Origin: Verrucomicrobiia bacterium
Lineage (GTDB): Bacteria; Verrucomicrobiota; Verrucomicrobiia; CAIQCK01
Direction: 5' to 3'
DNA: 64,000 nt
Assembly: GCA_041667205.1 (NCBI GenBank)
Contig: JBAYFL010000003.1
Span: 126,325-190,324, forward strand
Below, piece by piece: positions 4,072 to 21,229 of the stretch. The position numbers were made by a program, and so were the translations under genes. Below the pieces are notes generated by a model that saw only the letters and a program-made list of their open reading frames with translations, ran no database searches and had not been told where the DNA came from. Within the stretch, counting starts at the first letter, position 1, and every line of letters starts with the position of its first letter.

Positions 4072-5031
4072 ATGCACCCATTTGAAAATATTCTCAGCGT
4101 CGCGGCGGAAGACATCGAGTTCGAATTGCGCGGGGGTGGGGCCGTGTCTTGGACAGATTTTCTGCTGAATCCCCGACGACTGCGGGGGAGCGATTTCTTG
4201 ATGCGGTGGTCGCAAGGGGTTTGGAGCGAAGAGCGTTTGATTCAGGCTGTGAACGAAACCGGCCGCTATGTCGCCTTCCCATATGGTCCCAGTGGGGTCG
4301 CGCCAGATAACGATGTGCGCGCGTTCGAGCTGTATTTCGAACGACTGGAGAAGGCTGGGCTTAGCAAGATCAAGCGTCCGGACATTCTGATCTTTCGCAA
4401 GAGCGATGAAGCCAGAGTGCAGCGCACGGTGAATGAACTTGGCGGGATCACAGAACTGCCCTTCACTTCTGAAGACGATCAGCGCATGAAGGAGTTGCTG
4501 TCACGCGCTGTCTTGGCGGTGGAGTGTGAGAACAGCCTTTGGCGTGCAAAGCAAATGCCCGCTTTCGGCGTGGAACTCAAGCCGCAGAAACGTTTGGGCG
4601 GCAAGCTTGGCATGACCAAGACTGCCGTTTTGCCGACGGTTATTCTGAAAGAGGAAGATCGTGCTCCTCTGCACGAATGGCAGAAAAAGTGGAAGCCGCC
4701 CATTCACATCTGGCATGTGTTCTACGACTTGGCGTTTGGATTGGCTTTTGACAAGGCCGAGGATCTCATCCGAAGCGGGCAGATCGCGCCGACCGAACAA
4801 GTGTTTCAAGCTCCGGGTGGCGTAACGACGAAGAAAGTCATCTACAAAATCTATTATCACCACGCCTACCCTCTCGGTAATTCGGAGCAGGAACCGACCT
4901 TGGTTGCCGACCACATCACGGATAAAAATGGCCACATCCTGCCCTACGTGAAGTTCCAAGGTGGCCGCTTGCGGCTCGGTCCGGCCGCGCTGACAACACT
5001 CAATGAAGCCGCGCGTGAGGCGAGGGCGTAA
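4072..5031 (+). CDS. Putative type II restriction endonuclease (partner of the downstream MTase); family not assignable
   Basis: 319-aa ORF with an AAAGGAAG RBS, 5 nt upstream of the MTase gene, in a lower-GC (about 54%) islet. No signal peptide. Function is inferred from context only. Confidence 0.4.
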   Translation: MHPFENILSVAAEDIEFELRGGGAVSWTDFLLNPRRLRGSDFLMRWSQGVWSEERLIQAVNETGRYVAFPYGPSGVAPDNDVRAFELYFERLEKAGLSKIKRPDILIFRKSDEARVQRTVNELGGITELPFTSEDDQRMKELLSRAVLAVECENSLWRAKQMPAFGVELKPQKRLGGKLGMTKTAVLPTVILKEEDRAPLHEWQKKWKPPIHIWHVFYDLAFGLAFDKAEDLIRSGQIAPTEQVFQAPGGVTTKKVIYKIYYHHAYPLGNSEQEPTLVADHITDKNGHILPYVKFQGGRLRLGPAALTTLNEAAREARA

Positions 5032-5036
5032 GAGGT

Positions 5037-6850: not shown

Positions 6851-9094
6851 ATGAAAACATCCTTCCTTCCGTTGTTCTGTCTCCTGTTCTTGCTGGCCGA
6901 TTTGCACTCCGCCGAACTGGCGAGGGACGGCGCGACCCGCTGGAAGATCGTCCTGCCTGACGAAGCGACGATGGTCGAGAAGACGGCCGCGCGTGAATTG
7001 GCCGAGCATTTGAAGCTCGTCACCGGAGCCGAGTTCCTGACGATTGCCGAAAAGGACGCGCCCGCTGGCGGGAAGTCGTTGATCTTCGTTGGCAACACGA
7101 CGAAGGCGCCGAAGAAGAACTACAAGTTCGACGAAATCCTGATCAAAATGGACCGCGGGAACCCGATCCTGGCGGGGCATCCGAGGCGAGGCTGCCTGTA
7201 TGCGGTCTATTCGTTCCTGCAGGATGTCGTCGGCGTTCGCTGGTGGACGCCCGAAGACACGTTCATCCCGAAGAAGCCACGGCTGCTCGTCGCGGACAGT
7301 CTGCATGTTTCCTACGCGCCCCAGATGGTCTCGCGGGAGATGTATCATCGGGACGCCCAGCCGGGTGTTTTCTCCGCGCGCATGAAGGGCAACGGCGGCA
7401 TCGCCCCGGAATACGGCGGCGCGGTGCGGATCATCAACTTCGTCCACTCGTTCTACAAGTATCTGCCGCCCGAAAAGTATTTCGACGCGCATCCGGACTG
7501 GTATTCGGAGATCAACGGCAAACGCAAACACGAGCACGCGCAGCTTTGCCTGACCAACGAGGCGATGACGCGGGAGTTGATCAAGAGCGTCCTGGAGACG
7601 CTGCGGAAGAATCCCGACGCGAAGATGATTGACGTCTCGCAGAACGACTGGCACGGCTGCTGCACCTGCGCCAAGTGCAAGGCGATAGACGATGCGGAGG
7701 GAAGCCACGCAGGCACGCTCGTGTTGATGCTCAACAAAGTCGCCGAGGCGGTCGAGAAGGAGTTTCCGGACGTGCTGGTCGAATCGCTGGCGTATCAATA
7801 CACCCGCAAGCCGCCCAAGACTCTCAAGCCGCGCGACAACGTTCTGATCCGGCTTTGCACGATTGAGTGTTCCTACATCCAGCCGCTCAACGGTCCGCAG
7901 AACCGGAAGTTCGCCGCGGACATGGAAGGCTGGAGCAAGCTGGCCAAGCACCTGTTCATCTGGGATTACACGACCAACTACAACGACTACCTGGGGCCGC
8001 ATCCCAACCTGCGCGTGCTCGCCCCGAACGTCCGCTATTTCATCAAGCACGGCGCCATCGGCCTGTTTGAAGAGGGAGAAGGCGACGACTTCTGCGAACT
8101 GAAAAACTGGCTGCTCCTGCGCGTGATGTGGGAACCGCGCCTCGACGCCAACAAGCTGATCGCCGAGTTCGTGCGCGGCTACTACGGCGAAGCGGTCGCG
8201 CCGCTCATCAAGCGGTATTGGGACATCCTGATCGCGAAGGCGGAGAAGGAGAAGATTTATCTCGGCTGCTTCGGCATGAACTCGGCGAAGTGGATTGATC
8301 TGGCGACACTCAACCAGGTCACCGAAGTCATGAACAAGGCCGTCGAGACAGCGACGAGAGTTTGCGGCCCCGATTCCGCGGAACTGCGCCGGCTGCGGAA
8401 GTCCAAGATGGGCGTGGATCTCGTCTGGCTGAGCCGATACTACCCGCTCCGCTGCGAGGCGCGCGAAAAGAAGCTGCCGTTCCTCGGCCCGAAAGACCCG
8501 CTCAAGGCGGCGGAGGAGTTCGCGCAGCTCTGCAAACGGTTCAAGACGAAGGCGGCGATGATTTCGCAGGAGAAGAACCTCGGCGTGTATCTGGAAGGCC
8601 TGCGGGCGGGATTCCTCGCGCAGAGCAATCCACCCGACATGTGCAAGGGTCTGCCGGAAGACAGTTGGCTCGTCTTCGACGCCCTGTCGTTCCGCAACTT
8701 CCGCGATGCCGCGACGGTGATCAGCGATCCCCAAGCGTGGAACGGCAAGAGCGTCCGCATGGGGACGAAGGTGGACTGGAACACCAGCTACACCCCGCCG
8801 GTTCGCGGGAAGTATCGCATCCTCGCTTCCCTGCGTTGCGAGGGAACCATCAAGAAAGGCAAACTCGGTTCGTGGGGCGTCTATGACGCTCAGGGCAAGA
8901 AATCGCTCAAGACCATGGTTCTCAACGCGAAGGATTTCGCGACCGAAGACGGCTCGTTCGACAAGAAGTTCCGGTGGATTGATCTGGGCACTGTTGATTT
9001 CGTTCCCGGCGCATACTTCTGGTTCGCCCACGGACACAGCCCCGAACTGGACGCTATCTTTGTTGACCGTGTCGTGCTCATCGAAGCGAAGTGA
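6851..9094 (+). CDS. DUF4838-family secreted protein (putative glycoside hydrolase-like)
   Basis: 747 aa with a signal peptide. Architecture and composition are typical of DUF4838 proteins of Bacteroidota/PVC. The equally long antisense ORF 6794..9037 is a GC-shadow ORF. Confidence 0.55.
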   Translation: MKTSFLPLFCLLFLLADLHSAELARDGATRWKIVLPDEATMVEKTAARELAEHLKLVTGAEFLTIAEKDAPAGGKSLIFVGNTTKAPKKNYKFDEILIKMDRGNPILAGHPRRGCLYAVYSFLQDVVGVRWWTPEDTFIPKKPRLLVADSLHVSYAPQMVSREMYHRDAQPGVFSARMKGNGGIAPEYGGAVRIINFVHSFYKYLPPEKYFDAHPDWYSEINGKRKHEHAQLCLTNEAMTRELIKSVLETLRKNPDAKMIDVSQNDWHGCCTCAKCKAIDDAEGSHAGTLVLMLNKVAEAVEKEFPDVLVESLAYQYTRKPPKTLKPRDNVLIRLCTIECSYIQPLNGPQNRKFAADMEGWSKLAKHLFIWDYTTNYNDYLGPHPNLRVLAPNVRYFIKHGAIGLFEEGEGDDFCELKNWLLLRVMWEPRLDANKLIAEFVRGYYGEAVAPLIKRYWDILIAKAEKEKIYLGCFGMNSAKWIDLATLNQVTEVMNKAVETATRVCGPDSAELRRLRKSKMGVDLVWLSRYYPLRCEAREKKLPFLGPKDPLKAAEEFAQLCKRFKTKAAMISQEKNLGVYLEGLRAGFLAQSNPPDMCKGLPEDSWLVFDALSFRNFRDAATVISDPQAWNGKSVRMGTKVDWNTSYTPPVRGKYRILASLRCEGTIKKGKLGSWGVYDAQGKKSLKTMVLNAKDFATEDGSFDKKFRWIDLGTVDFVPGAYFWFAHGHSPELDAIFVDRVVLIEAK

Positions 9095-9125
9095 ACTGAC
9101 CGCCTCGCGCTCCAGCCGCTAACCG

Positions 9126-9167
9126 CATCCACACGGACGCGATTCTTGTCCATTTACCGCGAGGCGG
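9126..9167 (+). promoter_or_regulatory. Conserved upstream motif (copy 2), upstream of the GH gene
   Basis: CATCCACACGGACGCGATTCTTGTCCATTTACC; a TTTACC-N16-CATACT promoter-like arrangement lies inside it. Confidence 0.3.
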
Positions 9168-9206
9168 TCGCGTTGCATACTCGCACCAACATCAGGAGCA
9201 CCCGAT

Positions 9207-10661
9207 ATGAAACACAACACCGCATGGATGATGGCAGCGACGCTCGCACTCGCCACCGCGACTTCGGCCCAGATCATTGACACCTCCGAGACACGCGTGC
9301 AGACCACGCTCGATCCGAAGATGAAACGGATCGGCACTATCGAGCCGCGGAGCGTTGGCGAGATTGGCGGGCAGAACTGGTCCATCGGCTGCGAGACGAT
9401 CGATCGCGATTTCACCAACTGGGATTCCTACAAGGACTATCTCGTGCCACTCGGCATCAAACTGATCCGGCTGCAAGGCGGCTGGGCCAAGTGTGAGCGC
9501 GACCAGGGCAAATACGATTGGCGCTGGCTCGACCGCATCATTGACGATGCGCGCAGCCGCGGGTTGGAGATCATCCTCCAGACCAACTACGGCAACCCGA
9601 TCTATCCCGGCGGCGGCAGCCGGCATCTGTCCGGAGGTTTTCCGACTTCCGAGGAAGCGCTTGCGGCGTGGGACAAGTGGGTCGAGGCGATGGCGACGCG
9701 CTACAAAGGCAAGGTGCGCGATTGGGAGATGTGGAACGAGCCGAACAACAACAAGGCGCACACGCCCGAACTGACTGCCGACTTCGACATCCGAACGGCG
9801 GAGATCATCAAGCGCGTGATTCCCGACGCGCGCATCGCTGGCGCGGTGTTGAACTCTCCCGCGTTGGCTTACGCGGAGGGCTGGTTGAAACGCGTGGCGG
9901 AAAAGCAAAAACAGTCGCTCTTCACCTGGTTCATCTATCACGCCTACACGCGCAACCCCGACGAGAAACATTACGAGGAGGTCGAGAAACTCAAGGCGTT
10001 ACTCCAGCAGTATGCGCCAACGATCAAGCCATGGCAGGGTGAGGCCGGCACACAGTCGGAGTTCTGTCTCGGCGGTGCGTTGTGCAAGTATCCGTGGACC
10101 GAACTGACACAAGCGAAGTGGCAGGCGCGGCGGATGCTCGGCGACCTCGGCCACGACGTCGAGTCGTTGGTCTTCTCCATGGCCGACCTCGATTACAACC
10201 GTTGGGACGGCTACAGGCTCGGCGACATGGACCGTTACGGGCTGGTCAAGACCGACAAGCAATACCGGCTGCTCAAGGTGAAAATCGCTTACTACGCCGT
10301 GCAGAACCTCGTCGCGATCTTCGACGACACGCTCGTGCGCGTGCCGGATTATCCGTGCGAAGTCCAGTGCGAGAAAGCAACGGCCTTCTACGCCTACAAG
10401 AACACGCAGAGCGGCCAGCAGGTGCTCGTGTTCTGGGACAAGAGCGCCGTGCCATCCAACCAAAACGACACCGTGCCCGCGATGTTCACCATCGCCAAAG
10501 GTTCCTTCACCGAGCCAGTCTGGGTGGACCTGATCACCGGCGGCATCCACGAGATTCCGGCGGCGAAGATCGCGCGCGACGGCGAAAAGCTGATCTTCAA
10601 AGACATCCCGATCTATGACGCGCCCGCGCTCATCGCCGACAAGAGTCTGGTGATGAAATAG
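9207..10661 (+). CDS. Secreted clan GH-A glycoside hydrolase (GH39/GH5-like TIM barrel)
   Basis: Signal peptide. 'WEMWNEPN' acid/base motif, plus a later 'GEAGTQSE' region consistent with a nucleophile Glu. Confidence 0.6.
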   Translation: MKHNTAWMMAATLALATATSAQIIDTSETRVQTTLDPKMKRIGTIEPRSVGEIGGQNWSIGCETIDRDFTNWDSYKDYLVPLGIKLIRLQGGWAKCERDQGKYDWRWLDRIIDDARSRGLEIILQTNYGNPIYPGGGSRHLSGGFPTSEEALAAWDKWVEAMATRYKGKVRDWEMWNEPNNNKAHTPELTADFDIRTAEIIKRVIPDARIAGAVLNSPALAYAEGWLKRVAEKQKQSLFTWFIYHAYTRNPDEKHYEEVEKLKALLQQYAPTIKPWQGEAGTQSEFCLGGALCKYPWTELTQAKWQARRMLGDLGHDVESLVFSMADLDYNRWDGYRLGDMDRYGLVKTDKQYRLLKVKIAYYAVQNLVAIFDDTLVRVPDYPCEVQCEKATAFYAYKNTQSGQQVLVFWDKSAVPSNQNDTVPAMFTIAKGSFTEPVWVDLITGGIHEIPAAKIARDGEKLIFKDIPIYDAPALIADKSLVMK

Positions 10662-10920
10662 CGGGCCGCGCGCATCCGCGCTCGGCAACGCCGTCATCCG
10701 CATCCAGTGCGACGCCGTCTCCGGCGCGGACCATTACGTCTTCCGCGGCAAAGTCCTCACCGTGGACACCAAGTTCCGTTACCTCGGCTCCTCCAGCAAT
10801 CCCGACTACAACGCCGAAGAGATGCCGGCGGGCAAAACCGTCGAAGTCCAAGTCGTCGCCGCCAACGCCGAAGGCGCCCAAGGCCCCGCCGGCACTGCAG
10901 CCAGTGTGGTGGTGACATAG
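10657..10920 (+). pseudogene. Start-less fibronectin type III-like domain fragment in the +1 frame, directly after the GH stop
   Basis: Translation 'IRIQCDAVSGADHYVFRGKVLTVDTKFRYL..GKTVEVQVVAANAEGAQGPAG' is FN3-like. There is no start codon; the frame opens right after a TGATGA in that frame. Confidence 0.35.
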
Positions 10921-10961
10921 AGCAACTTTGCTGGTAAGAAACCCGACAGGAGGAAACAACT

Positions 10962-11621
10962 ATGATTCGTTCTTATCTTAAAGTAGCCGTAACGACGCTC
11001 ATACTCGCGACAAGCGCGATGATCTATGCGCAGGACGCGTTACCCAACGATTCAGCATGGTCGGCAGGCGTTGACCTCATGCGCTTGATTGATCCGGCGA
11101 AAGATCGATTAGAGGGCCAGTGGAGTAAACAGGAAGCAAAGTTAATTACTGCCGGAGACTCCGCGCGTTCCAAATTGCAGATTCCCTTCCATCCGCCAAA
11201 GGAATATGATTTTCGCACGGTTTTCACTCGTGCAAGCAACACCGCTTTGGTCATACAAATCTTCTCCCAGAGTGAGCATGTCGGAATGTGGCTCATGGAG
11301 AATGGTTATTTGGGTTTTGCAATGGTGAACGGCCAGTCGGCAAACAGTAATCCGACCACGGTTGCGAATCCCGGTGGTAAAGAAACTAGTGGACGCCACA
11401 CTTCAATTCTTCAGGTCCGTCGGAGGAGCATAAAGGCCTATTTGGACGGCAAGCTTGTCAATCAGATGAAAACTGATTACAGCAACCTGAGTTTACATTC
11501 CGCATGGGAAATTCCAAATCATCGCTGTCTCGGATTGGCAACCGTTGGTCCTGCCACATTTGAGAAAATTGATCTGATTGAAGTGATGGGCAAAGGATCC
11601 GCAACTACCAGACGGAAATGA
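10962..11621 (+). CDS. Secreted LamG/jellyroll-fold protein, DUF1080-like (putative 3-keto-glycoside hydrolase family)
   Basis: AGGAGG RBS and a signal peptide. 'GQWSKQEAKLITAGDS..YDFRTVFT' pattern. Gene GC is about 48%, well below the flanks. Confidence 0.45.
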   Translation: MIRSYLKVAVTTLILATSAMIYAQDALPNDSAWSAGVDLMRLIDPAKDRLEGQWSKQEAKLITAGDSARSKLQIPFHPPKEYDFRTVFTRASNTALVIQIFSQSEHVGMWLMENGYLGFAMVNGQSANSNPTTVANPGGKETSGRHTSILQVRRRSIKAYLDGKLVNQMKTDYSNLSLHSAWEIPNHRCLGLATVGPATFEKIDLIEVMGKGSATTRRK

Positions 11622-11685
11622 CGACGATAAGGACACCCTTGCTCTCAGCACCACAGCACAAAAGGTAGGGACGACGCGGCGACAA

Positions 11686-13068
11686 TTACAGCGTCCAACC
11701 TTCGCGATAGGTGCGCTTGACGTAGCTGTTGGCTTGCTTGTCGTTGGTCACTTCCATCTTCTCGCCGTCCCAGAAGAGGCGGCGGTTGGGGTAACGCACG
11801 GCGAGATTGCCCATCAGCACCATCTCGGAGAGCGGGCCGGAGAAGTCGAAGCTCGAGCACGCGGGCTTGCCGTCCTTGCAGGCGCGAATCCAATCCTTCT
11901 CGTGCCCCTCCTTGCCGCCGGGAACGCGCTCCAGCGTCTTCGCCGGGCGCTTGAACGCCTTCATCTTCGCGTCAGGAATGAGGCGCGGACTCTCGCCAAA
12001 GCAGCCGCAGATGAGTTTGCCCTTGTCGCCGATGAACAACACGCCGCCGTCGGAGTTGCCCATTTGGCGGCCCTCCTCCAACTCGACGGGCCGTGGGGGC
12101 ATCATGCCGCCGTCCCACCACGTCAGGTTCACCGCCGGCATGGAGTCGCGTTTCGGGAACGCATAGCGCACGATGGTGGAGCGCGGGAAGTTTTCGTTCT
12201 TCGGCTCGACGACTTTCCAGAGGTCGCGCCAGTAGGTAGAGATGCAGCCCTCGACGCTCGTGGGATACTTCAGTTTCATGGACCAGAAGACGCAGTCGAG
12301 GATGTGGCAGCCGAGGTCGCCGAGCGAGCCGGTGCCAAAATCGCACCACGCGCGCCAGTTGCCGGGATGGTAGGCATGATTGAACGGGCGGAACGGCGCG
12401 GGGCCGATCCATTTGTCCCAATCCATGCCCTGCGGCACAGGCTCCGCCTCGGGCCGGCCGACCTCGATGCCTTGCGGCCAGACGGGGCGGTTGGTCCAGG
12501 CGTGAATCTCGCGCACGTTGCCAATGGCGCCGGCCCAGAGCCATTCGCAAACCATCCGCGCGCCCTCGCCGGAGCGGCCCTGGTTGCCCATCTGCGTGAT
12601 GACTTTGTATTTGCGGGCGGCTTCGGTCATGGCGCGCACTTCGTTGACCGAATGCGCCAGCGGCTTCTGGACGTAAACGTGTTTGCCGGCCTTCATGCAG
12701 GCCATCGCGACAACGGCGTGGTTGTGGTCAGGCGTGGCGATGACCACCGCCTCGATGTCCTTCTGCTTCTCCAGCATCTCGTGGAAGTCCATATAGACCT
12801 TCGCGCCGGGATGCGCCTTGAAGGTTTTGGCGGCGTAGTTGGGATCAATGTCGCAGAGCGCGACAATGTTCTCCGTCTCGGAGCAACGCTTGATGTTGTT
12901 GCCGCCCATGCCGCCGACGCCGACGCCGGCGATGTTGAGCTTGCGGCTCGGCGGAGTCTGGCCGTTGAGGCCGAGCACGTAGCCCGGCAGGACGTGGAAC
13001 GCCGCCGTGGCAACGGCCGCGCGGCGGAGGAAGCTGCGACGAGAGAAAGTGGAATCAGGTTGGTTCAT
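11686..13068 (-). CDS. Gfo/Idh/MocA-family NAD(P)-dependent oxidoreductase with Tat signal (glycoside 3-dehydrogenase-like)
   Basis: Internal start MNQPD with a GGAGAA RBS. 'SRRSFLRRAAVATAAF' twin-arginine leader, then a 'NIAGVGVGGMGG' Rossmann motif. Confidence 0.8.
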   Translation of the reverse strand: MNQPDSTFSRRSFLRRAAVATAAFHVLPGYVLGLNGQTPPSRKLNIAGVGVGGMGGNNIKRCSETENIVALCDIDPNYAAKTFKAHPGAKVYMDFHEMLEKQKDIEAVVIATPDHNHAVVAMACMKAGKHVYVQKPLAHSVNEVRAMTEAARKYKVITQMGNQGRSGEGARMVCEWLWAGAIGNVREIHAWTNRPVWPQGIEVGRPEAEPVPQGMDWDKWIGPAPFRPFNHAYHPGNWRAWCDFGTGSLGDLGCHILDCVFWSMKLKYPTSVEGCISTYWRDLWKVVEPKNENFPRSTIVRYAFPKRDSMPAVNLTWWDGGMMPPRPVELEEGRQMGNSDGGVLFIGDKGKLICGCFGESPRLIPDAKMKAFKRPAKTLERVPGGKEGHEKDWIRACKDGKPACSSFDFSGPLSEMVLMGNLAVRYPNRRLFWDGEKMEVTNDKQANSYVKRTYREGWTL

Positions 13069-13310
13069 GGTTGAGTTCTCCTTTTCGATGGCGGCCAGTG
13101 TAATCTCAGCGGCAGTTGCGCAACATAACTTTTTCGAAGCCTTGACCGTAAGGGTTTCCATCAGATTGAGTATTGGCACAACGCGACATCGTTTATGCCA
13201 AAGGCGACCGCGACAGCCGTCAACAAATCGCCTGACAAGCGCCCTTGCATCCGCCTATAGTGCGCCTCGCTGATAACAACACTGGGTTTCGCCTACGAAA
13301 GGACGCCATC

Positions 13311-14207
13311 ATGAACCGACTCCTGCTCATTGCAGCGTTTTCCATCGCCGCAACCATTGTCAGCGCCGCTACGCCGATCGTCACCCATCAACAAACCCGC
13401 AAGATCGGCGCGACCAAGGCCACCCAATGCCAGTCCCTCTCCCACTTCTGCCTCAACACCGCCGGCGACATCGTTGCTTGTGACGAAGGCGACGACGTCG
13501 TGCGTGTCATCACAACCCGCGACCAGCTCAAGGCCACATGGAAGATGCCGTTTTCCCCGCACGCCATCGCTGCACGCGCGGATGGCAGTTACGTGGTGAC
13601 CAGTTCCGCCACCGTGGCACTTCTCGGCCCCGACGGCAAAATCCTCAAGACTGCGGAGCTGCCCGGCGCCGGCAAGTATTCCCGCTCGCCCGGCGCCGCC
13701 GTCATCAAGGACGACATTTTCGTCTGCTCGCGCGCCGGCACATCGTTCGCGGTCTTCCGGTTCAACAAGCAACTGGGCGACTGCAAGGAGATCGTCCGCG
13801 GCCTGCGCGGCTGTTGCGGCTGCCAGGACATCGGCACGGACGGCAAGGACCTCTACGTTGTCGAGAACGCCCGCCATCACGTGATGCGCTTCGACCGTGA
13901 CGGAAACAAGCTCGGCGAGTTCGGCAAACGCGACCCCGACTCGCTCGAAGGCTACGGCGGCTGTTGCGAGCCGAAGAACATCTGCTTTGGTCCCGCCGGC
14001 GCCATCTACACCTCCGAGTCCAACAACTTCCGCGTCAAGCGCTGGAGCGCCGACGGCAAGTGCACGCTGGTGGCGATGGTGAAGTCGCAATACGTCGGCT
14101 GCACGCAGGTGGCCATTGCCACCAACAAGGATGGCAGCGAGCTGTATTTCCTGGACAAAGTTGGCTGCGTCATCCACGTGCTGACCGGTCCGGCCTTGGG
14201 GAAATAG
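13311..14207 (+). CDS. Secreted NHL-repeat-like beta-propeller protein, rich in Cys pairs
   Basis: AAAGGA RBS and signal peptide MNRLLLIAAFSIAATIVSA. NHL-like 'DLYVVENARHHVMRFDRDG'. Unusual CC pairs 'GCCGCQD' and 'GGCCEPKN'. Confidence 0.5.
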   Translation: MNRLLLIAAFSIAATIVSAATPIVTHQQTRKIGATKATQCQSLSHFCLNTAGDIVACDEGDDVVRVITTRDQLKATWKMPFSPHAIAARADGSYVVTSSATVALLGPDGKILKTAELPGAGKYSRSPGAAVIKDDIFVCSRAGTSFAVFRFNKQLGDCKEIVRGLRGCCGCQDIGTDGKDLYVVENARHHVMRFDRDGNKLGEFGKRDPDSLEGYGGCCEPKNICFGPAGAIYTSESNNFRVKRWSADGKCTLVAMVKSQYVGCTQVAIATNKDGSELYFLDKVGCVIHVLTGPALGK

Positions 14208-14210
14208 CGC

Positions 14211-16253
14211 ATGCCTGCCGCCAAGCCTCTTTCTGGTTTTCTGAAACCGTTCGCTCTTCCGTTCGCGTTGCTCGCTCTTGCCGTCGGTTGCGGCCAACCC
14301 ACGCCACAGCCCGCCGCGCGCGAGCCGCTCCGCATGATCGTGATGGACCCGCTCTGCAAGCAACTCGCATGTGCGTGCGTAAAAGGCTTCGCCCAGCGCG
14401 ACTATCATGCGCTCGCAGCGTTCATGAGCGCAAAGCTCGGCCGCCCGGTCGAGGCGTTTGTGCAAGAGAGTTTGAAGGAGGCCGAGCGCGTCACCGATGG
14501 AAAACTCGACTTGATCATCGGCAAACAGTCGGAGGTTTGCGCGCAAGCCGCTGCCATCAACATCCCGATCTCGCCGCTGGCGATGCTGACCGACCGCGAG
14601 GGGAAGACCACGCTCACCGGCCTCTTCATCGTGCGCAGCGACGACCCCGCCAAAAGCGTCGCGGATCTGAAAGGACGGAAAGTTCTCTTCGGTCCGCCCA
14701 CTTGCGATGAGAAACATGCCGCCGCCCTCGCGCTGATGAAGTCGCTCATCCTGCCGCTCCCCGAGAAGCCGGAGACACTAGCCACGTGCAACCAAACCGG
14801 CCTGGCCGTCTTTGAGAAACAAGCCGATGCTGGCGTTATCTCCAGTTACGCAATGGCACTGCTGGAAGGCTGCGGCGCGATTGACAAAGGCGCGCTCCGC
14901 GTCATCGGCCACACCGCGCCCGTGCCATTCATCAGCGTGTTCGTCACGAAGCGAGTTTCAGCGACAGACGCGGAGGCGATCACGAAAGCGCTGCTGGCCG
15001 TCAGCGGCGATTCGCAGTTGAAAGAGAAGATGGAGACTCGCGACGGCTTCGTCCCCTGCCCCGCCCAAAAGGAAACCGCCGGCTGGACCGACTGGCGCGG
15101 CGGGCCGCGACGCGACGCCATCAGCAACGACATGCCCGCAAAGCTGCCCACTCAGGCACGTTTTCTTTGGCGCAAGAAGATGGAAAGCCCGGCGATGGCC
15201 GGCATCGCCGTGCTACCGCCGTTCCTGATCGTCGCGGACAAGACCAGCGGCACCAAAGACGACACGTGGCGCTGCCTCAACGCCGATACGGGCGCACAAC
15301 TCTGGGAACTGACCTATCCCGCGCCCGGCGAACTGGACTACACCAACACGCCCCGCGCCACGCCAGTCATCGTTGGCGGGAAGGTTTATCTGCTCGGCGC
15401 GTTCGGTCACCTGCACTGCGTCGAGTTGAAGACCGGCAAGGTTCTTTGGAAACGTGACCTCCTCGCCGACTTCGGAGGCAAGTCGTTGGCGTGGGGATTC
15501 TGCCCCAGCCCGACCATTGACGGCGACCGTCTCATCACCGGCACCGCGTCGAAGGACGCCGCCATCGTCGCACTCGACCGCCACACCGGCAAACTGCTCT
15601 GGAAGACGCCCGGCGAGCCAATGGCCCACGGCGCGATGTTGCTGGACGTGTTCGGCGGACGGCGGCAACTCGTCGGCTATGACATCGAATCCATCCGCGG
15701 CTGGGACCCGGAGACCGGCAAGTGCCTGTGGAGCATCACGCCGCCAAAACCGCGCGACTACAACGTTCCCACGCCGCTGAAGTTCGGCAAGTTCCTGCTC
15801 CTCTCCACCGACGACCACGCCACGAGGCTCCATGCGTTTAATGCCGACGGCACCATCCGCCCTCAGCCGGTCGCAAAGCACAACGACCTCAAGCCGGAAA
15901 TCTCCACGCCGGTCATTGTCAACGGCCTGCTCTTCGGCACGATCAACGACCTGCTGTTCTGCCTCGACGCCGCCAACGGACTGGCCGAGCGATGGCGTTT
16001 TGAGGACAAGGCGCTCAACGAATACGCCAGCCTCATCGGCGGCAACAACCGCGTCCTGGCCACGACCACCACCGGCGAACTGCTGCTCTTCGCCGCGGAG
16101 AGCCGAAGCTACCGCCTCATCTCGCGACTGCAAGTCTTCCAAGGAAAGAACGGTCGCTCGCCCGACCTCTGGGCGCACCCCGCGCTCGTCGGCAATCGCC
16201 TCTACCTGCGTAGCCCAGAAGAAACCGTCTGCCTACGGCTCGACGAGAACTGA
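14211..16253 (+). CDS. Lipoprotein fusion: PhnD/SsuA-type phosphonate-binding SBP domain plus PQQ-like (BamB-type) beta-propeller
   Basis: Lipobox 'LALAVGCGQ'. Residues 40-290 carry the PhnD signature 'LTGLFIVRSDDPAKSVADLKGRKVLFGPPTCDEKHAA'. The C-terminal 350 aa carry PQQ-like repeats ('GKVLWKRDL', 'GKLLWKTPGE', 'GKCLWS'). Start is 3 nt after the previous gene. Confidence 0.6.
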   Translation: MPAAKPLSGFLKPFALPFALLALAVGCGQPTPQPAAREPLRMIVMDPLCKQLACACVKGFAQRDYHALAAFMSAKLGRPVEAFVQESLKEAERVTDGKLDLIIGKQSEVCAQAAAINIPISPLAMLTDREGKTTLTGLFIVRSDDPAKSVADLKGRKVLFGPPTCDEKHAAALALMKSLILPLPEKPETLATCNQTGLAVFEKQADAGVISSYAMALLEGCGAIDKGALRVIGHTAPVPFISVFVTKRVSATDAEAITKALLAVSGDSQLKEKMETRDGFVPCPAQKETAGWTDWRGGPRRDAISNDMPAKLPTQARFLWRKKMESPAMAGIAVLPPFLIVADKTSGTKDDTWRCLNADTGAQLWELTYPAPGELDYTNTPRATPVIVGGKVYLLGAFGHLHCVELKTGKVLWKRDLLADFGGKSLAWGFCPSPTIDGDRLITGTASKDAAIVALDRHTGKLLWKTPGEPMAHGAMLLDVFGGRRQLVGYDIESIRGWDPETGKCLWSITPPKPRDYNVPTPLKFGKFLLLSTDDHATRLHAFNADGTIRPQPVAKHNDLKPEISTPVIVNGLLFGTINDLLFCLDAANGLAERWRFEDKALNEYASLIGGNNRVLATTTTGELLLFAAESRSYRLISRLQVFQGKNGRSPDLWAHPALVGNRLYLRSPEETVCLRLDEN

Positions 16254-16303
16254 ACAGGTGGATTTTTCGGCGCGCGTATGCTTCAATCCGCGCGCGACGC
16301 TGT

Positions 16304-16378
16304 GGGCGGTTAGCTCAGCGGTAGAGCACGTGCTTTACACGCACGCGGTCGCAGGTTCGAACCCTGCACCGCCCACCA
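16304..16378 (+). tRNA. tRNA-Val (anticodon TAC)
   Basis: GGGCGGT acceptor stem, GCTCAGCGGTAGAGC D-arm, anticodon loop TTTACAC, GGTTCGAAC T-arm, ACCGCCC-A-CCA 3' end. Confidence 0.85.
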
Positions 16379-16477
16379 GTTCTTCCACGAGAAACTCCCC
16401 ACAAATCGTATTCCAGCACTGCCGCGCGCTTGTGACTCCACGCGACGCAACGGCATGGCGCGCGATCAGTCCGCCGC

Positions 16478-17323
16478 TCAAGAGTTGTTGCCGATGAGTT
16501 CGATGCCCGGATTGAGAAACCTGATTCGGCGCGACTTGTAGAGCCCGCCGATCGCTTGCTTGAAGGCTTTCTTGCTGACGCCAAACTTCTCGCGGATGGA
16601 TTCGGGGGAACTGTTATCATCAAACGGGAGTCGCCCGTCATTTTGCTTGAGGGCCTCGACGATTTGCTCGGCCAGCGGTGCGACGCGTTTGTAGCCGGAA
16701 GCGTCGAGGGCAAGATCCATCTTGCCGTCGGGATGGACTGCGCGGACGAATCCTTTGAGTTGCTGCCCTACCTCGATGCTTGACAGGAGGTTGTTCGAGA
16801 AGAGAAGACCCATGTGTTCCCGCTCAACGATGGCGTTGTAGCCGAGTGGCGTCTTGTCCACGATGACAAGGTTTACCGGCTGCCCCGCCTGATACGGCGG
16901 ATGCGTCCGGAGAAGATGCCGCTTCAGCCGCGCCGTCGCAACGATCCGATCCGTCTTGGGATCAATGTAAACGTAAACCACCACACCCTGCCCCGGGCTG
17001 AGCGGAGCGGTCTGCTCGCGAAACGGAAGCAACAGATCCTTGGCAAGGCCCCAGTTGAGAAAGGCGCCAATCTGGGGATGGACACTGATGACTTTCAGGC
17101 AGGCAAAGTCACCCACGGTGGCCAGGGGCACTTCCGTCGTCGCGACCAAGCGATCTTCCGAATCGCGGTGGACAAAGACATCCAACTCGTCGCCGGGAGC
17201 CGCTCCCTCTGGCACGTAACGCCGGGGAAGAAGAATCTCCCCCAGTTCCTCTCCATCCAAATATGCCCCGGGCGTCGCGTGTCTCACGAGGCGCAGCCGG
17301 TTGATTTTGCCAATAAAAGCCAT
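16478..17323 (-). CDS. cvfB: CvfB/YitL-family S1 RNA-binding domain protein
   Basis: 281 aa with tandem S1-like domains and a C-terminal winged helix. Typical CvfB length and N-terminus. Confidence 0.7.
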   Translation of the reverse strand: MAFIGKINRLRLVRHATPGAYLDGEELGEILLPRRYVPEGAAPGDELDVFVHRDSEDRLVATTEVPLATVGDFACLKVISVHPQIGAFLNWGLAKDLLLPFREQTAPLSPGQGVVVYVYIDPKTDRIVATARLKRHLLRTHPPYQAGQPVNLVIVDKTPLGYNAIVEREHMGLLFSNNLLSSIEVGQQLKGFVRAVHPDGKMDLALDASGYKRVAPLAEQIVEALKQNDGRLPFDDNSSPESIREKFGVSKKAFKQAIGGLYKSRRIRFLNPGIELIGNNS

Positions 17324-17475
17324 GACGGATGAGAGTAACCGTCACCAAGCGGTTTCGGTAGAACAATCGCCGCCCGCTGCTCAATGTTTTCCACCGAATC
17401 GCGTCCGGACCCGGCCTTGGATGACTGCAGATGACTGCATTCAACGGGAGTCGTTGTCAGCCCTAACAGCTTGTG

Positions 17476-17496
17476 GTTGTGTTGAGTTTACACAAC
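17476..17496 (+). promoter_or_regulatory. Inverted repeat GTTGTGT-N7-ACACAAC in the leader of the IOR gene (candidate operator)
   Basis: Perfect 7-bp arms with a 7-nt spacer (TGTGT-N7-ACACA core), 85 nt upstream of the start codon. Confidence 0.25.
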
Positions 17497-17581
17497 ACGG
17501 CCTTAAGATGCGTAGCGGCAACACAACTGCTCCAACAAAAGCTGGCGAACCAACCGGTCCGCTGATAAAGTCCGGCATCGC

Positions 17582-20500
17582 ATGAAAGTTGACCCCCGCT
17601 TTTTGAGGGAGAGTGGCGACGAGGTTTTTACCGGCAACGAACTCTTGGTGAAGGGCTGCCTTGAAGTCGAGGGCGGCACACACCTGTTGACCGGTTATCC
17701 CGGTTCGCCCGTCGCCAGCTTTTTCGATGCCGCCGAGGCCGTCGGTGAACTGCTCCGCGAGCACGGCATCCGCGCCACGATCGCCAACAACGAGGCCCAC
17801 GCCGTCGCGATGATCAACGGCTCGCAGATGGCGGGCCTGCGCGCCATCGCCGCATTCAAGAGCGTCGGCGCCCACGTCGCCAGCGACGCGCTCGCGCTCG
17901 GCAATATGGCCGGCGCGCATCGCGAAGGTGGCGCGGTGGTGGTCATCGGTGACGACCCGTGGAGTGAATCCACCCAAGTGCCGACGGACTCGCGCTTCAT
18001 CTGCAAACACCTGATGACGCCGGTGCTGGAGCCAGCCACGGTGCAGGAGCAGAAGGACTGGATTGATCTGGCATTCAAGCTCTCCCGCGAGGCGGAGCTT
18101 TACGTCGCCTACATCGTCACCACCAACCAGATGGATGGCGGCGGTTCGGTGGAGACGCGGCCGAACCGCTTTCCGGAAATCAGCGCTAACAACCGCACGC
18201 AACTCGATTCCTCCAAACTGCGTGTGCAGGACATGGTCCTGCTGCCACCGCGGACGTGGAACAAGGAGAAGGACATGCCGTCCCGCGTCCAGCGCCTCCT
18301 GCAAAGCGCGCGCCGCCACGGCGTGAACCGCATCCTCTCGCCCAATCAACATCCGCGCGCCCGCTACGAGATCGGCTTTGTCAGCTCCGGCCAGGCTTAC
18401 AACTACCTCCAGCACGCGCTAGAAGACCTCGGCCTCGCCGACCAGATGCCGATTCTCAAACTCGGCCTCACGTATCCACTCGATGCCGAACTCGTCGTCG
18501 GGTTCGCCGAGCAGGTGAAGAACATTTTCGTCATCGAGGAGCGGCGCGGTTTCCTCGAAGAGCAGATCGCCTCCATCCTCAGCGGAGCGGCACAGCAGGA
18601 CAGCGCGTTTCTGCCGCCGGCGGTTTGGGGAAAGAAGTTTCCAGACGGTGATGGCCTGCCGGCCATTCGCGGGCTCAACCCCTCCATTGTTCTCGAAAAA
18701 CTCGGCCCCGTCGTGCTGGGACTGAACGACCCCGCCGTCCGCGTGGACCGCGCCAAGGTCGAGGCCGAACTCGACCTGCTGCGACGCACCGCCACGTTTG
18801 ACATCAGCATTGTCCAACGCACGCCGACGTTCTGCCCCGGCTGCCCGCACCGCGACTCAGCCAGCGTGCTGATCGAGGTGAAGAAGCAATTCCGCGATAG
18901 CGACTACATGCGCCGCACGCACGGCAGCGACCCGGTGGACCTGGTGTTCCACGGCGACACCGGCTGCTACACGATGCTGATGTTCGAGCCGACGCAAGAC
19001 CTCATGCACAACTACAGCGGCATGGGCCTCGGCGGCGCGACCGGCGCGGGCATTGACCCGTTCATCACGAACAAGCAGGTCGTCTTCATGGGCGACAGCA
19101 CGTTCTTCCACAGCGGCGTCATCGCCATCTCCAACTCGGTCAAGAACGGCCAGGACATCACCTACATCATCCTCGACAACGGGACCACCGCGATGACCGG
19201 CCACCAACCCACGCCGGGACAATCGCGCGGATTGATGGGCGAGGAAACTTTCCGCCAGAGCATTGACCGCATCGTCGAGGGCGTGCTTTCCGGCAGTGAG
19301 AACCACGCCGAAGTCACCCGCGCCAACCCGGCCTATCGCTCCCAGTGGAAGGAACTGCTGGAGGAAACCATCCTCAAGCCCGGCGTCAAAGTCCTCATCG
19401 CCGACAAGGAGTGCGGCATCACCCATCACCGGCGCGAGGCCCGCGAAGAGCGCGCCACGATCCGCAAGAAGGGTTTCCTCCCGCGCAAGACATTCATCAG
19501 CGTCACGCCCGAGGTTTGCGAGTTCTGCCTCGAATGCACCAACGCCACCGGCTGTCCTGGGCTGACGGTTGCCAACACGCCCTACGGCACCAAGGTCCAG
19601 ACCGATTTCTCCTGGTGCGTTTCCGACGGCGCTTGCGCCAAGATCAAGGCGTGCCCGTCGTTCGAGGAAGTCACGGTTCTCCGCAGCCAGAAGCCCCCGT
19701 CGCGCGTGGATCGGCTCAACCTTCAAGACATTCCCATACCAGCCTTGCCCCGCTTGGAGCGGGCTTGGCGCATCTACCTCGCAGGCGTCGGCGGCATGGG
19801 CATCGGCCTCGCCACAGCCACGCTCGTCCGCGCCGCCTACAAGCAAGGTTACGATGTGCTGTTCTGCGACAAGAAGGGCCTCGCCATCCGCAACGGCGGC
19901 GTCTATTCGCAGATCACTTTCAAGCCGCGCGGTTCCAACCACAGCTCCAATATCATCCCCTACGGCAAGGCCGACGTTATCATCGGCGTGGACATCCTGG
20001 AGGCAGTGCGCTCGCTTGATCCGAACGTGCCTCAACGCGTCGGCAGTCCCGACTACACCACCGCCATCGTCAATACCCACAAACAGCCGACCATCCAGAC
20101 GTTGCTCGGCCGCAATGACTTCGATCCGGCGCAACTGGAGGACATCATCCGCCGCTACACGCGAGGCAACGCCTACTTCAGCTTCAACGCCAGCGAGGTC
20201 AGCGAGCGATTGTTCGGCACCCAACTCTACGCCAATGTCATCATGCTTGGCATCGCTTTCCAACGCGGCCTGCTGCCATTGGCGATGGAGAACATTGATT
20301 GGGCCATCCGCGCCACCGTCGGCGGCGCCGGCGATGACAACATCAAAGCCTTCAACGTCGGCCGCAAGATCGTCGTCGCCCCTGCTGAAGTTGCTGCCGC
20401 CGCTGGCCAGTCAGCCGCCGTCGAGAAACACGCCACCTACGAGCAGGTGGTCGCCGACAAGGCTGACATCCTCACCCGCACCAAGAGCAGCGGCGCATCG

Positions 20501-21229
20501 CTCGCCACCGCCTACCGCGAACTCGTCCATCGTGCTGTTGAACACATTCGCCTCGACGTGGACTCGTTGCGAGATCTGGCACTACGCGTCTATGACCTCA
20601 TTCAGTATGATGGCATCGGCTACGCGAAGAAATTCATCGAGCAGATCAAGGCGATCCACATGCTCGACAAGGCCGAGCACGCCTTCGAAGCCACCAAGAC
20701 CGCCATCTCGAACCTGCACCGCGCGATGGTCATCAAGGATGAGATTTACGTCGCCCACCTCCTGACCAGTGAGGAAAAGCACCGCCGCGACCGCGCCCGT
20801 TACGACGTGGACCCGGCGCGCGGCGACCGCATCCGCTACAGCCACATCAATCGCCCGCACTTCGACGTGCTCGGCCTCCAGATTGAGTTCGACATGCGCG
20901 GCAAGCAGTGGCAGATGCGCGCCATGCGCCACCTTAAAGTCCTGCGCCGCATCCTGCCTCGATGGCACAAGCGCGAGAAGGATTTCCGCGACTGGTATTG
21001 CGACCTCTGCGCCAAGTTCTTCTACCACGATCCGGAGACCTACAAGACCTGGTTGGAATTACTGCGCCTGCCCTCGCAAGTCACCGGCTATCGCGATGTG
21101 CGTTACCCGAAGATGAACCAGGCCCGCAGCCGCGCCACCGAACTGCTCAAGCGGCTCGAAACAATGCAGGCCACCGCAAGCCGCGTTCCCGCTCCTGCGC
21201 CGGTCGTGGCGATCAACCAACCGCGTTAA
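17582..21229 (+). CDS. Indolepyruvate/2-oxoacid:ferredoxin oxidoreductase, fused alpha-beta form (IOR family, 1215 aa)
   Basis: N-terminus 'FTGNELLVKGCLEVEGGTHLLTGYPGSPV' (TPP/pyrimidine-binding), [4Fe-4S] Cys clusters (CPGCPHRD; CEFCLEC..CPG) and a C-terminal gamma-like domain. Confidence 0.85.
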   Translation: MKVDPRFLRESGDEVFTGNELLVKGCLEVEGGTHLLTGYPGSPVASFFDAAEAVGELLREHGIRATIANNEAHAVAMINGSQMAGLRAIAAFKSVGAHVASDALALGNMAGAHREGGAVVVIGDDPWSESTQVPTDSRFICKHLMTPVLEPATVQEQKDWIDLAFKLSREAELYVAYIVTTNQMDGGGSVETRPNRFPEISANNRTQLDSSKLRVQDMVLLPPRTWNKEKDMPSRVQRLLQSARRHGVNRILSPNQHPRARYEIGFVSSGQAYNYLQHALEDLGLADQMPILKLGLTYPLDAELVVGFAEQVKNIFVIEERRGFLEEQIASILSGAAQQDSAFLPPAVWGKKFPDGDGLPAIRGLNPSIVLEKLGPVVLGLNDPAVRVDRAKVEAELDLLRRTATFDISIVQRTPTFCPGCPHRDSASVLIEVKKQFRDSDYMRRTHGSDPVDLVFHGDTGCYTMLMFEPTQDLMHNYSGMGLGGATGAGIDPFITNKQVVFMGDSTFFHSGVIAISNSVKNGQDITYIILDNGTTAMTGHQPTPGQSRGLMGEETFRQSIDRIVEGVLSGSENHAEVTRANPAYRSQWKELLEETILKPGVKVLIADKECGITHHRREAREERATIRKKGFLPRKTFISVTPEVCEFCLECTNATGCPGLTVANTPYGTKVQTDFSWCVSDGACAKIKACPSFEEVTVLRSQKPPSRVDRLNLQDIPIPALPRLERAWRIYLAGVGGMGIGLATATLVRAAYKQGYDVLFCDKKGLAIRNGGVYSQITFKPRGSNHSSNIIPYGKADVIIGVDILEAVRSLDPNVPQRVGSPDYTTAIVNTHKQPTIQTLLGRNDFDPAQLEDIIRRYTRGNAYFSFNASEVSERLFGTQLYANVIMLGIAFQRGLLPLAMENIDWAIRATVGGAGDDNIKAFNVGRKIVVAPAEVAAAAGQSAAVEKHATYEQVVADKADILTRTKSSGASLATAYRELVHRAVEHIRLDVDSLRDLALRVYDLIQYDGIGYAKKFIEQIKAIHMLDKAEHAFEATKTAISNLHRAMVIKDEIYVAHLLTSEEKHRRDRARYDVDPARGDRIRYSHINRPHFDVLGLQIEFDMRGKQWQMRAMRHLKVLRRILPRWHKREKDFRDWYCDLCAKFFYHDPETYKTWLELLRLPSQVTGYRDVRYPKMNQARSRATELLKRLETMQATASRVPAPAPVVAINQPR

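Follow-up and report, generated by a model that had tools for sequence, protein, structure and literature searches.

Cysteine and glutamate at the oxyanion-contact positions of a PhnD-fold/BamB-like propeller fusion encoded beside a cysteine-rich NHL propeller in Verrucomicrobiia

A bicistronic operon for two propellers and a binding domain

Within a 64,000-nucleotide stretch of the Verrucomicrobiia bacterium assembly GCA_041667205.1 (contig JBAYFL010000003.1, forward strand, positions 126,325 to 190,324; ‘the window’, to which coordinates refer unless another locus is named), we have analysed two adjacent genes (Table 1). Gene 1 encodes a secreted NHL β-propeller with a conserved set of cysteines, and gene 2 a PhnD-fold substrate-binding domain fused to a BamB-like propeller. 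Our principal finding is that the ligand contacts of solved PhnD-type proteins are replaced in this binding domain, with an invariant glutamate and a conserved cysteine among the substitutes, and that its closest non-orthologous relatives are encoded in ArsR-regulated arsenic/metal clusters.

An earlier, sequence-only reading of this DNA had taken the two genes to be a single operon, and we concur. The TAG of gene 1 ends at position 14207 and is followed by ‘cgc’ and then, after this 3-nt gap, by the ATG of gene 2 at 14211; GAAAGGA stands before the ATG of gene 1, and a sigma-70-like promoter is contained in the 131-nt spacer between gene 1 and a divergent Gfo/Idh/MocA oxidoreductase gene (11686-13179). 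The window and seven related Verrucomicrobia loci all keep both promoter hexamers, amid sequence that diverges, and this holds even though the gene lying upstream differs in those seven loci; no operator-like palindrome was found in the upstream alignment of eight relatives, of which the hexamers are the sole conserved part. Given the 3-nt gap, and a single promoter that is conserved while the upstream gene varies, genes 1 and 2 form a self-contained bicistronic operon. A longer, TTG-started open reading frame (ORF) for gene 1 was rejected, as the aligned relatives all begin at MNR/MK; a protein identical to that of gene 1 is on record from a Verrucomicrobiia metagenome-assembled genome (MAG). 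Scanning positions 11000-17600 against Rfam for riboswitches and other RNA elements returned tRNA-Val alone (tRNA-Val(TAC), 16304-16378, 50 nt downstream of gene 2), and no intrinsic terminator was found on the plus strand between gene 2 and this tRNA.

Table 1. Features of the two-gene operon, in window coordinates, and the residues of gene 2 that stand at the ligand-contact positions of Te_PtxB
Feature	Coordinates	Strand	Remarks
Promoter, sigma-70-like	13232-13261	+	CTGACA-18 nt-TATAGT; consensus scan, 10/12 matches
Gene 1	13311-14207	+	298 amino acids (aa); secreted six-bladed NHL β-propeller, conserved cysteine set
Gene 1, Sec-type signal peptide, MNRLLLIAAFSIAATIVSA	13311-13367	+	From the translation; no twin-arginine motif
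Gene 1, C47 and C57	13449-13451 and 13479-13481	+	Predicted in two inner strands of blade 1
Gene 1, first vicinal Cys motif RGCCGCQD, residues 166-173	13806-13829	+	Loop position predicted, at the entry to the innermost blade-4 strand
Gene 1, second vicinal Cys motif GGCCEPKN, residues 216-223	13956-13979	+	Loop position predicted, at the entry to the innermost blade-5 strand
Gene 1, Cys264	14100-14102	+	Predicted in the loop entering blade 6
Gene 2	14211-16253	+	680 aa; PhnD-fold binding domain fused to 8-bladed BamB-like propeller
Gene 2, signal peptide and lipobox LAVG-C27	14211-14291	+	Read from the translation
Gene 2, binding domain, residues 39-283	14325-15059	+	Type II periplasmic binding-protein fold, PF12974
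Gene 2, family motif DPL-x5-A-C-x-C-V-x-G-x-A-Q-R-x-Y, residues 46-65	14346-14405	+	First loop of lobe 1
Gene 2, L88 (Te_PtxB Y55)			Leu in 67/77
Gene 2, L135 (Te_PtxB Y100)			Leu or Gln in the family
Gene 2, residues 164-169, TCDEKH	14700-14717	+	In place of the PhnD/PtxB S-T-S anion motif
Gene 2, residue 165 (Te_PtxB S130)			Variable
Gene 2, residue 166 (Te_PtxB T131)			Variable
Gene 2, E167 (Te_PtxB S132)			77/77
Gene 2, C193 (Te_PtxB H160)	14787-14789	+	72/77
Gene 2, I241 (Te_PtxB cap Y208)			Ile or Val in the family
Gene 2, 8-bladed PQQ_2/BamB-like propeller, residues 290-680	15078-16250	+	Starts with a W-x-D-W-R-G strand

A PhnD-type domain that has lost its oxyanion contacts

The lipobox attributed to gene 2 from its sequence is indeed present (LAVGC, with Cys27), although a lipobox-like motif occurs in just 21 of the 77 aligned family members, so that lipid tethering to the membrane is not general in the family. 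The domain that follows matches PF12974 over residues 62-282 (E 1.1e-29; 103.9 bits against a cut-off of 27) and fits PhnD/PtxB better than it does generic amino-acid binders. The ‘PhnD signature’ ascribed to it stands only at the level of the Pfam family; the signature of ligand contacts (Tyr, Tyr, S-T-S, His and a capping Tyr) is absent.

Its closest solved relative is Te_PtxB (5JVB; E 8e-13 with the family profile and 6e-8 with the single sequence), in which Y55, Y100, S130, T131, S132 and H160 contact the ligand and Y208 caps it; a latch over the ligand pocket is formed in PtxB by the first loop of lobe 1 (PMC5700983). Aligned to 5JVB with HMMER in two independent ways, which agree with one another, the family has Leu, Leu, two variable residues, Glu, Cys and Ile/Val at these seven positions (Table 1; family counts are from the 77 sequences), and K168, next to the invariant E167, is present in 72 of the 77. 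Having an invariant carboxylate at the anion site, with every hydrogen-bond donor lost, argues against phosphonate, phosphite or sulfonate as the ligand. Beyond the fold, the Pfam family and export to the periplasm, which it has in common with PtxB and PhnD, the domain of the window falls short of the NCBIfam equivalog cut-offs of the hidden Markov models (HMMs) for PhnD (TIGR03431, 34.2 bits against 261.1) and 3A0109s03R (TIGR01098, 43.2 against 112.05), lacks an ABC (ATP-binding cassette) partner, and is fused to, or encoded beside, propellers.

Capture of phosphonate, phosphite or sulfonate by an orphan protein of PhnD type, perhaps on behalf of a distant ABC transporter or sensor, has for these reasons to be thought highly improbable, and on the sequences compared it looks already largely refuted: all seven contacts are replaced, with a glutamate at the anion site, the constant partner of the domain is an NHL propeller and not a permease, and phn, ptx, htx and ssu genes occur at none of the 82 related loci considered below. 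What speaks for it is the strength of the PF12974 match (E 1e-29) and the identity of the nearest solved structures, the phosphite/phosphonate binders PtxB and PhnD, along with the precedent of orphan binding proteins that serve distant transporters or sensors (PMC8050422). With every oxyanion contact of Te_PtxB replaced, and with the nearest relatives found in ArsR-regulated clusters, the small anionic ligand suggested in the sequence-only reading has to be given up.

A second element rich in conserved residues is the family motif in the first loop of lobe 1, in which D46, P47, C54, C56, R63 and Y65 are invariant (77/77). It was found, CxC included, at all 82 loci, a count that is not independent, the motif being one of two patterns used in the scan that located them. 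This stretch is the lowest-confidence part of the domain in our AlphaFold model (pLDDT 77), as would be expected if it were a mobile latch. As for C193, the obvious suspicion of a structural bond with C221 is weakened by five sequences in which C193 is missing and C221 is still invariant; an obligatory C193-C221 disulfide thus seems unlikely. C54, C56 and C193, which are conserved across the family and in the ars-linked sister clade described below, all map to pocket or latch positions.

An NHL propeller with invariant vicinal cysteines

Gene 1 had been described, from sequence, as a secreted NHL-like propeller, and this description holds. It carries a Sec-type signal peptide, and its orthologues likewise have hydrophobic N-termini; its NHL/SGL matches in Pfam are weak, and the AlphaFold model built from a 67-sequence alignment (pLDDT 91.3) comprises 24 strands in six blades, giving both an NHL repeat match and the six-bladed NHL fold.

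Fourteen cysteines are present in all, of which C168, C169, C218, C219 and C264 are invariant in 67 of 67 relatives, with C47 in 66 and C57 in 57. Two vicinal-cysteine motifs had been singled out previously, with conservation of the pairs in orthologues proposed as a check; both CC pairs are kept in 67/67, whilst the third cysteine of GCCGC (C171) is not conserved and is Gln in 53/67. Around the first pair R166, G167 and G170 are also invariant (67/67) and D173 nearly so (66/67), and alongside the second pair P221 is invariant, with E220 and K222 each in 63/67. That the pairs might form a metal site is the part of the earlier suggestion favoured by the evidence.

Laying these residues on the strand pattern of the model (DSSP) gives the placements in Table 1, from which we infer that six or seven thiols, from four consecutive blades, would sit around one mouth of the central channel, where the invariant or near-invariant R166, D173, H189, E220, K222 and K243 are predicted to adjoin them.

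A module conserved across several phyla

Searches detected 609 homologues of the fusion, full-length and at 45-50% identity across phyla, and relatives turned out to be encoded at 471 loci in a scan of 185,579 species genomes (one genome per species). Of these 471, the best 80 come from MAGs labelled, in their own records, as Verrucomicrobiota, Planctomycetota (Pirellulaceae, Planctomycetaceae, Thermoguttaceae, Phycisphaerae, Sedimentisphaerales and Ca. Kuenenia), Kiritimatiellota and Armatimonadota. A homologue of gene 1 lies directly upstream, on the same strand, at 71 of 83 loci; no upstream NHL gene was detected at the remaining 12, four of which have too short an upstream sequence to judge. 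Recurring as it does across several phyla, the gene pair is not a chance pairing.

The module is compact, being made up of two or three genes with no other partners. All-against-all clustering of the flanking ORFs at 82 loci gave gene 1 alone as a conserved neighbour; whatever else recurs is of a generic kind (Gfo/Idh/MocA, sulfatase, FGE-sulfatase domain, Ser/Thr kinase, SMC and ABC ATPase) or owes its recurrence to synteny between closely related genomes. In the window gene 2 has no ABC permease or ATPase gene near it, and across the 82 loci none is conserved, a generic ABC ATPase being found at five of them in variable positions; nor is a histidine kinase or response regulator conserved near the module at these loci. 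The sequence-only reading is vindicated in having seen here a stand-alone extracytoplasmic module and no transporter component, and its orthologues do not sit in canonical phn/ssu operons; the window, too, has no phn or ssu gene close to the operon.

The three domains are not always joined. Against 1.84 billion representatives, the binding domain alone gave 147 clusters at E <= 1e-30, many of which are genuine stand-alone proteins that end 10-20 residues past the domain. At one such split locus (L085) an NHL gene is followed by a binding-protein gene and by a propeller gene with its own lipobox signal, the last two overlapping stop to start; another (L089) has an NHL-like protein, a binding protein and a propeller in the same order, and two more (L086 and L093) have NHL and binding protein with no adjoining propeller. 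The upstream NHL protein of each split locus has both CC motifs. From split forms in the same gene order, which amount to Rosetta-stone evidence, it follows that the three modules belong together, with the NHL and binding proteins as their constant core. In L084, where binding protein and propeller also seem to be split, what looks like a gene boundary may be a scaffold or assembly gap, a run of N (X in translation) lying at the start of the propeller gene (L084:6480-6760).

There are further variations on this theme. Some Planctomycetes have two tandem NHL paralogues, both with CC motifs, upstream of the fusion (L019:2955-4996; L025:293-2481). In Sedimentisphaerales a triple fusion is found (L044:6200-8920 and L053:5074-7830), in which binding domain and eight-bladed propeller are followed by a C-terminal 3-keto-disaccharide-hydrolase domain (DUF1080), and at neither locus does an NHL gene adjoin. 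One protein of the triple-fusion type, P0278, has lost both CxC and C221. Loss of CxC was not seen to go with absence of the NHL gene, the 12 NHL-less loci all keeping CxC, in a scan that is biased to this motif.

Arsenic- and metal-related genes were sought in the window and at all loci by tblastn, with ArsR, ArsC, ArsM, Acr3, P1B ATPase and DsbD_TM seeds; in the main family only two loci gave matches. In L054, from a Limisphaerales MAG, an ArsM-family methyltransferase gene (L054:7507-8688) immediately precedes the NHL gene on the same strand; of the models it matches the arsinothricin-type ArsM best, at 331 bits, which does not reach the cut-off of 500. In L003 a P1B ATPase gene is two genes away from the module.

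Sister-clade proteins in arsenic and metal clusters

Nearest to the family, outside its orthologues, is a clade of exported stand-alone binding proteins (P0383, P0369, P0393 and P0391) that are 32-36% identical to the domain of the window (E ~1e-31 to 1e-35 for P0383 and P0369). They have neither an NHL partner nor a propeller, and they carry a C-S-C motif. D46, C54, C56, Y65, K105, S107, E167, K168, C193, S211 and Y213 are all kept and C221 is not, so that exactly three cysteines are common to the main family and its sister clade.

Three types of context were found for these proteins, each of them concerned with metals or metalloids. In L090/L091/L092 (L090:5914-10600) the order is arsR/smtB, thioredoxin-type arsC, arsM, binding protein, a remnant of a P1B-ATPase C-terminus and acr3; arsM and acr3 score above their cut-offs (313 bits against 263, and 381 against 283, respectively). 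In L094/L095 (L094:1-1332) the binding-protein gene follows 25 nt after a heavy-metal P1B ATPase gene. In L097 (808-3077) it stands between an arsR/smtB regulator and a DsbD_TM-family membrane protein whose best named match is the arsenical permease ArsG and whose second is DsbD; a DsbD-type protein beside one of these genes fits with thiols that are held in reduced form. Two metagenome scans yielded no further contexts for the clade, and a homologue search gave the four clusters only.

We regard the sister-clade proteins as candidate periplasmic arsenite/metal binders, distinct from AioX and apparently undescribed. That the closest non-orthologous relatives of the main family lie in ArsR-regulated arsenic/metal clusters points to a sulfur-loving cation or metalloid, in preference to an oxyanion, as its ligand.

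An eight-bladed propeller of BamB-like fold

The C-terminal domain of gene 2 had been called a seven-bladed PQQ/BamB-like propeller. Its PQQ_2 match (E 4e-22 in Pfam) bears out the type; the number of blades has to be corrected, as the model shows eight strand groups, in agreement with its match to BamB. The AlphaFold model of gene 2, from 77 sequences, has a pLDDT of 89.9 and a pTM of 0.65, so the position of its two domains relative to one another is less certain. With Foldseek, BamB is the best fold match of the propeller (E ~1e-18; target TM-score 0.71-0.77), ahead of tetrathionate hydrolase (0.58-0.66) and the PQQ (pyrroloquinoline quinone) alcohol dehydrogenases (0.41-0.51); YxaL was also matched.

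Likeness to BamB, a lipoprotein of outer-membrane protein assembly that binds the POTRA domains of BamA, extends to the eight-bladed PQQ_2-type propeller and to the protein of the window being a lipoprotein. It ends with 15% identity, an added N-terminal binding domain, the scarcity of the lipobox among relatives and HMM scores that are far below the cut-offs (TIGR03300, 48.4 bits against 285.2; NF008351, 39.4 against 423), on which membership of the BamB family was rejected. A PQQ-dependent dehydrogenase was rejected too, as the sequence-only reading had anticipated on finding no catalytic signature (TIGR03075, 42.2 bits against 480; TIGR03074, 24.1 against 833); the propeller of gene 2 has ~390 aa where those enzymes, with their PQQ and Ca/Ln ligands, have about 570-600 aa.

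Could the module nevertheless be an enzyme? In such a periplasmic complex the NHL protein would be the catalytic subunit, with a redox-active or metal-bearing cysteine site on its top face, and the binding domain would deliver the substrate, perhaps an organoarsenical, or else polythionate or polysulfide, sulfur species on which the propeller might act in the manner of tetrathionate hydrolase. That the six polar residues near the gene 1 cysteine motifs are so highly conserved would suit this, as would the many invariant D, R, N, H and W residues of the gene 2 propeller, which exceed the usual need of a scaffold. Tetrathionate hydrolase is among the top fold matches and has a weak sequence match to the family profile (E 2e-5); in TtrS, tetrathionate is sensed by a PF12974 domain, and in L054 an ArsM-like gene adjoins the module. 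Yet BamB remains the better fold match, and no known catalytic residue of a propeller enzyme was matched, in a comparison that left outside the catalytic Asp of tetrathionate hydrolase (Asp325 in the A. ferrooxidans enzyme, a dimer of arm-swapped architecture). Conserved neighbours at the 82 loci include no cytochrome, no electron-transfer partner and no gene of cofactor biosynthesis, and export by Sec rules out pre-assembled cofactors. All told, we judge an enzymatic role distinctly unlikely.

Discussion

Synthesising these findings, our preferred reading, put forward tentatively and as something rather less than probable, is that the module is a periplasmic, thiol-based binder of arsenite/antimonite or of a soft metal, and neither a transporter component nor a phosphonate binder; that arsenite in particular should be the ligand is, in our estimation, less probable again than this general statement. 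Three-thiolate sites are classical ligands of As(III) and Sb(III), and also suit Cd, Pb, Hg, Zn and Cu(I). Three-cysteine sites and vicinal cysteine pairs bind arsenite or metals in ArsR, ArsD and MerT/MerA, with vicinal Cys-Cys and C-x-C motifs providing three-thiolate As(III) or two-thiolate Hg(II) sites from which the ion is passed between proteins; the folds of ArsD, ArsR, MerT and MerA are unrelated to those described here and mostly cytoplasmic or membrane-bound, so that the likeness to our module is one of motif only.

We propose a speculative model of how such a module might work. The PhnD-fold domain has lost its ancestral oxyanion pocket and has, in its stead, C54 and C56 on the latch of lobe 1, C193 on lobe 2 and E167; C54, C56 and C193 are presumed to be near each other in space and reduced, and closure of the two lobes would then trap the ligand on their thiolates. 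The NHL propeller of gene 1 might offer a second thiol site around its central channel, formed by the two vicinal cysteine pairs, C264 and C47, and this site could receive the ligand from the binding domain or share it. As to the eight-bladed propeller, we envisage a scaffold close to the membrane that also serves for docking. All in all, a ligand would be captured, buffered or handed over in the periplasm and not imported. The conjecture extends to what the ligand is, to any contact of the fusion with the NHL protein, to the direction of transfer and to the roles of both propellers.

Taken a step further, the same arrangement may amount to a new periplasmic thiol relay, in which a Cys3-Glu site captures an ion and passes it to a six-cysteine ring around the channel of the NHL propeller. 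This we think somewhat unlikely; if it were so, the ring may hold a multinuclear metal-thiolate cluster or a catalytic centre.

Several observations weigh against a thiol-based binder. Conserved periplasmic cysteines are often structural disulfides, and that C54, C56 and C193 lie near one another, or the NHL cysteines do, is a prediction from mapping by homology and from the register of the repeats. CxC is lost in some members (P0278, P0360 and P0342). The sister clade is small (four 90%-identity clusters in three independent contexts) and, at 32-36% identity, may well differ from the main family in its ligand. In the main family itself, 80 of 82 loci, and the 64-kb window, have no ars, mer, cop, czc or P1B gene nearby, and a single P1B ATPase in a set of 82 loci comes close to the chance expectation. 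The operon promoter, moreover, looks constitutive, and nothing explains why simple binding should need two propellers.

Some of these points would sit more comfortably with a structural or scaffold complex, with cysteines in disulfides and with propellers as platforms for proteins or glycans (compare BamB, TolB and the PknD sensor domains), at work in envelope biogenesis or polymer processing; its binding domain would take a small molecule in a manner that does not depend on thiols, or act as an allosteric lid as in MltF. BamB as the closest fold of the gene 2 propeller (target TM-score up to 0.77), a constitutive-looking promoter, the absence of metal genes nearby, the glycan-degradation genes that surround the module in the window and the Sedimentisphaerales variant with its lectin-like 3-keto-disaccharide-hydrolase domain and no adjoining NHL gene all lend themselves to such a view. 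It leaves unexplained, on the other hand, why Cys and Glu should occupy exactly the ligand-contact positions and why relatives should lie in ArsR-controlled clusters; C221 persists where C193 is lost, the BamB equivalog HMM is far from its cut-off (48 bits against 285), and a family with 471 matches in 185,579 species genomes, not universal even in these phyla, would be odd as core envelope machinery. Weighing both sides, we hold a scaffold role to be fairly improbable.

Returning to thiol-based binding as our preferred reading, the nearest precedent is AioX, a PhnD-fold protein that binds arsenite via a cysteine (PMC5908839; PDB 6EU7), with a pocket made up of Tyr88, Cys106, Tyr131, Ser161, Ser163, His192 and Asp210 (PMC5908839). 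The arsenite sensors AioX and ArxX share with the family of the window a PhnD-type fold that serves no transporter, and demonstrate that this fold can be adapted to As(III). The differences are considerable: AioX keeps the Tyr, Ser-x-Ser and His oxyanion residues and adds a single cysteine (C106), apparently at another position, where the domain of the window has three cysteines and a glutamate, with x-x-E and C as the equivalents of Ser-x-Ser and His. AioX also signals to the AioS/AioR two-component system, and sensors of the AioX/ArxX/ArrX group are encoded beside such a system (aioSR/arxSR) and an arsenite oxidase, whereas no kinase gene lies near the module of the window. PDB sequence searches (E limit 1 with the single domain and 0.01 with the family profile) returned no AioX chain.

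In sum of its affiliations, the family is an orphan binding-protein fusion with a rebuilt pocket, a member of PF12974, PQQ_2 and NHL at the level of fold that fails the defining tests of PhnD/PtxB, AioX, BamB and the PQQ dehydrogenases. Literature searches (PhnD with PQQ and Planctomycetes; vicinal cysteine with NHL; the NCBI product name) found no published description of it, and a paper on a hydrazine-synthase propeller proved to be unrelated. Its members go by the database names ‘PhnD/SsuA/transferrin family substrate-binding protein’, ‘PQQ-binding-like beta-propeller repeat protein’ and ‘hypothetical protein’, of which the first two imply phosphonate uptake and a quinoprotein dehydrogenase; the sequence contradicts both. 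As a consequence of such misleading names, metagenomic surveys that count PF12974 as phosphonate/phosphite uptake would overcount wherever these phyla abound.

If a thiol pocket were confirmed, the family and its ars-linked sister clade would be the second case, after AioX and independent of it, in which the PhnD fold was turned to metalloid binding, and would represent an unrecognised periplasmic layer of arsenic/soft-metal handling in abundant environmental phyla. Should the relay prove correct, it would have a wide distribution across Planctomycetes, Verrucomicrobia, Kiritimatiellia and Armatimonadetes, and would resemble none of the described components of ars, mer, cop and cus systems.

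Genomic surroundings of the module

Upstream of the operon, positions 6851-13179 hold a likely glycan-degradation run, of a kind typical of PVC (Planctomycetes-Verrucomicrobia-Chlamydiae) bacteria, which comprises genes for a DUF4838 protein, a GH42-like hydrolase, a 219-aa secreted protein that has no Pfam match and the Gfo/Idh/MocA oxidoreductase, the last with an N-terminal hydrophobic signal-like segment. Gfo/Idh/MocA genes lie near the module at 11 of the 82 loci, close to a rough chance expectation.

Before this run, positions 4072-6668 encode an AccI-like restriction endonuclease and an N6-adenine/Eco57I-type methylase in a stretch whose G+C content is lowered to 0.57 from about 0.62, and which has probably been acquired as a restriction-modification island. 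On the far side of the operon are a gene for a CvfB-like S1 RNA-binding protein on the minus strand (16478-17323) and one for a 1215-aa single-chain 2-oxoacid:ferredoxin oxidoreductase (17582-21229; TPP_enzyme_C, POR and DUF6537), of the indolepyruvate type by architecture. Much further downstream, between positions 54001 and 56000, the G+C content falls to 0.54 and the GC skew is reversed.

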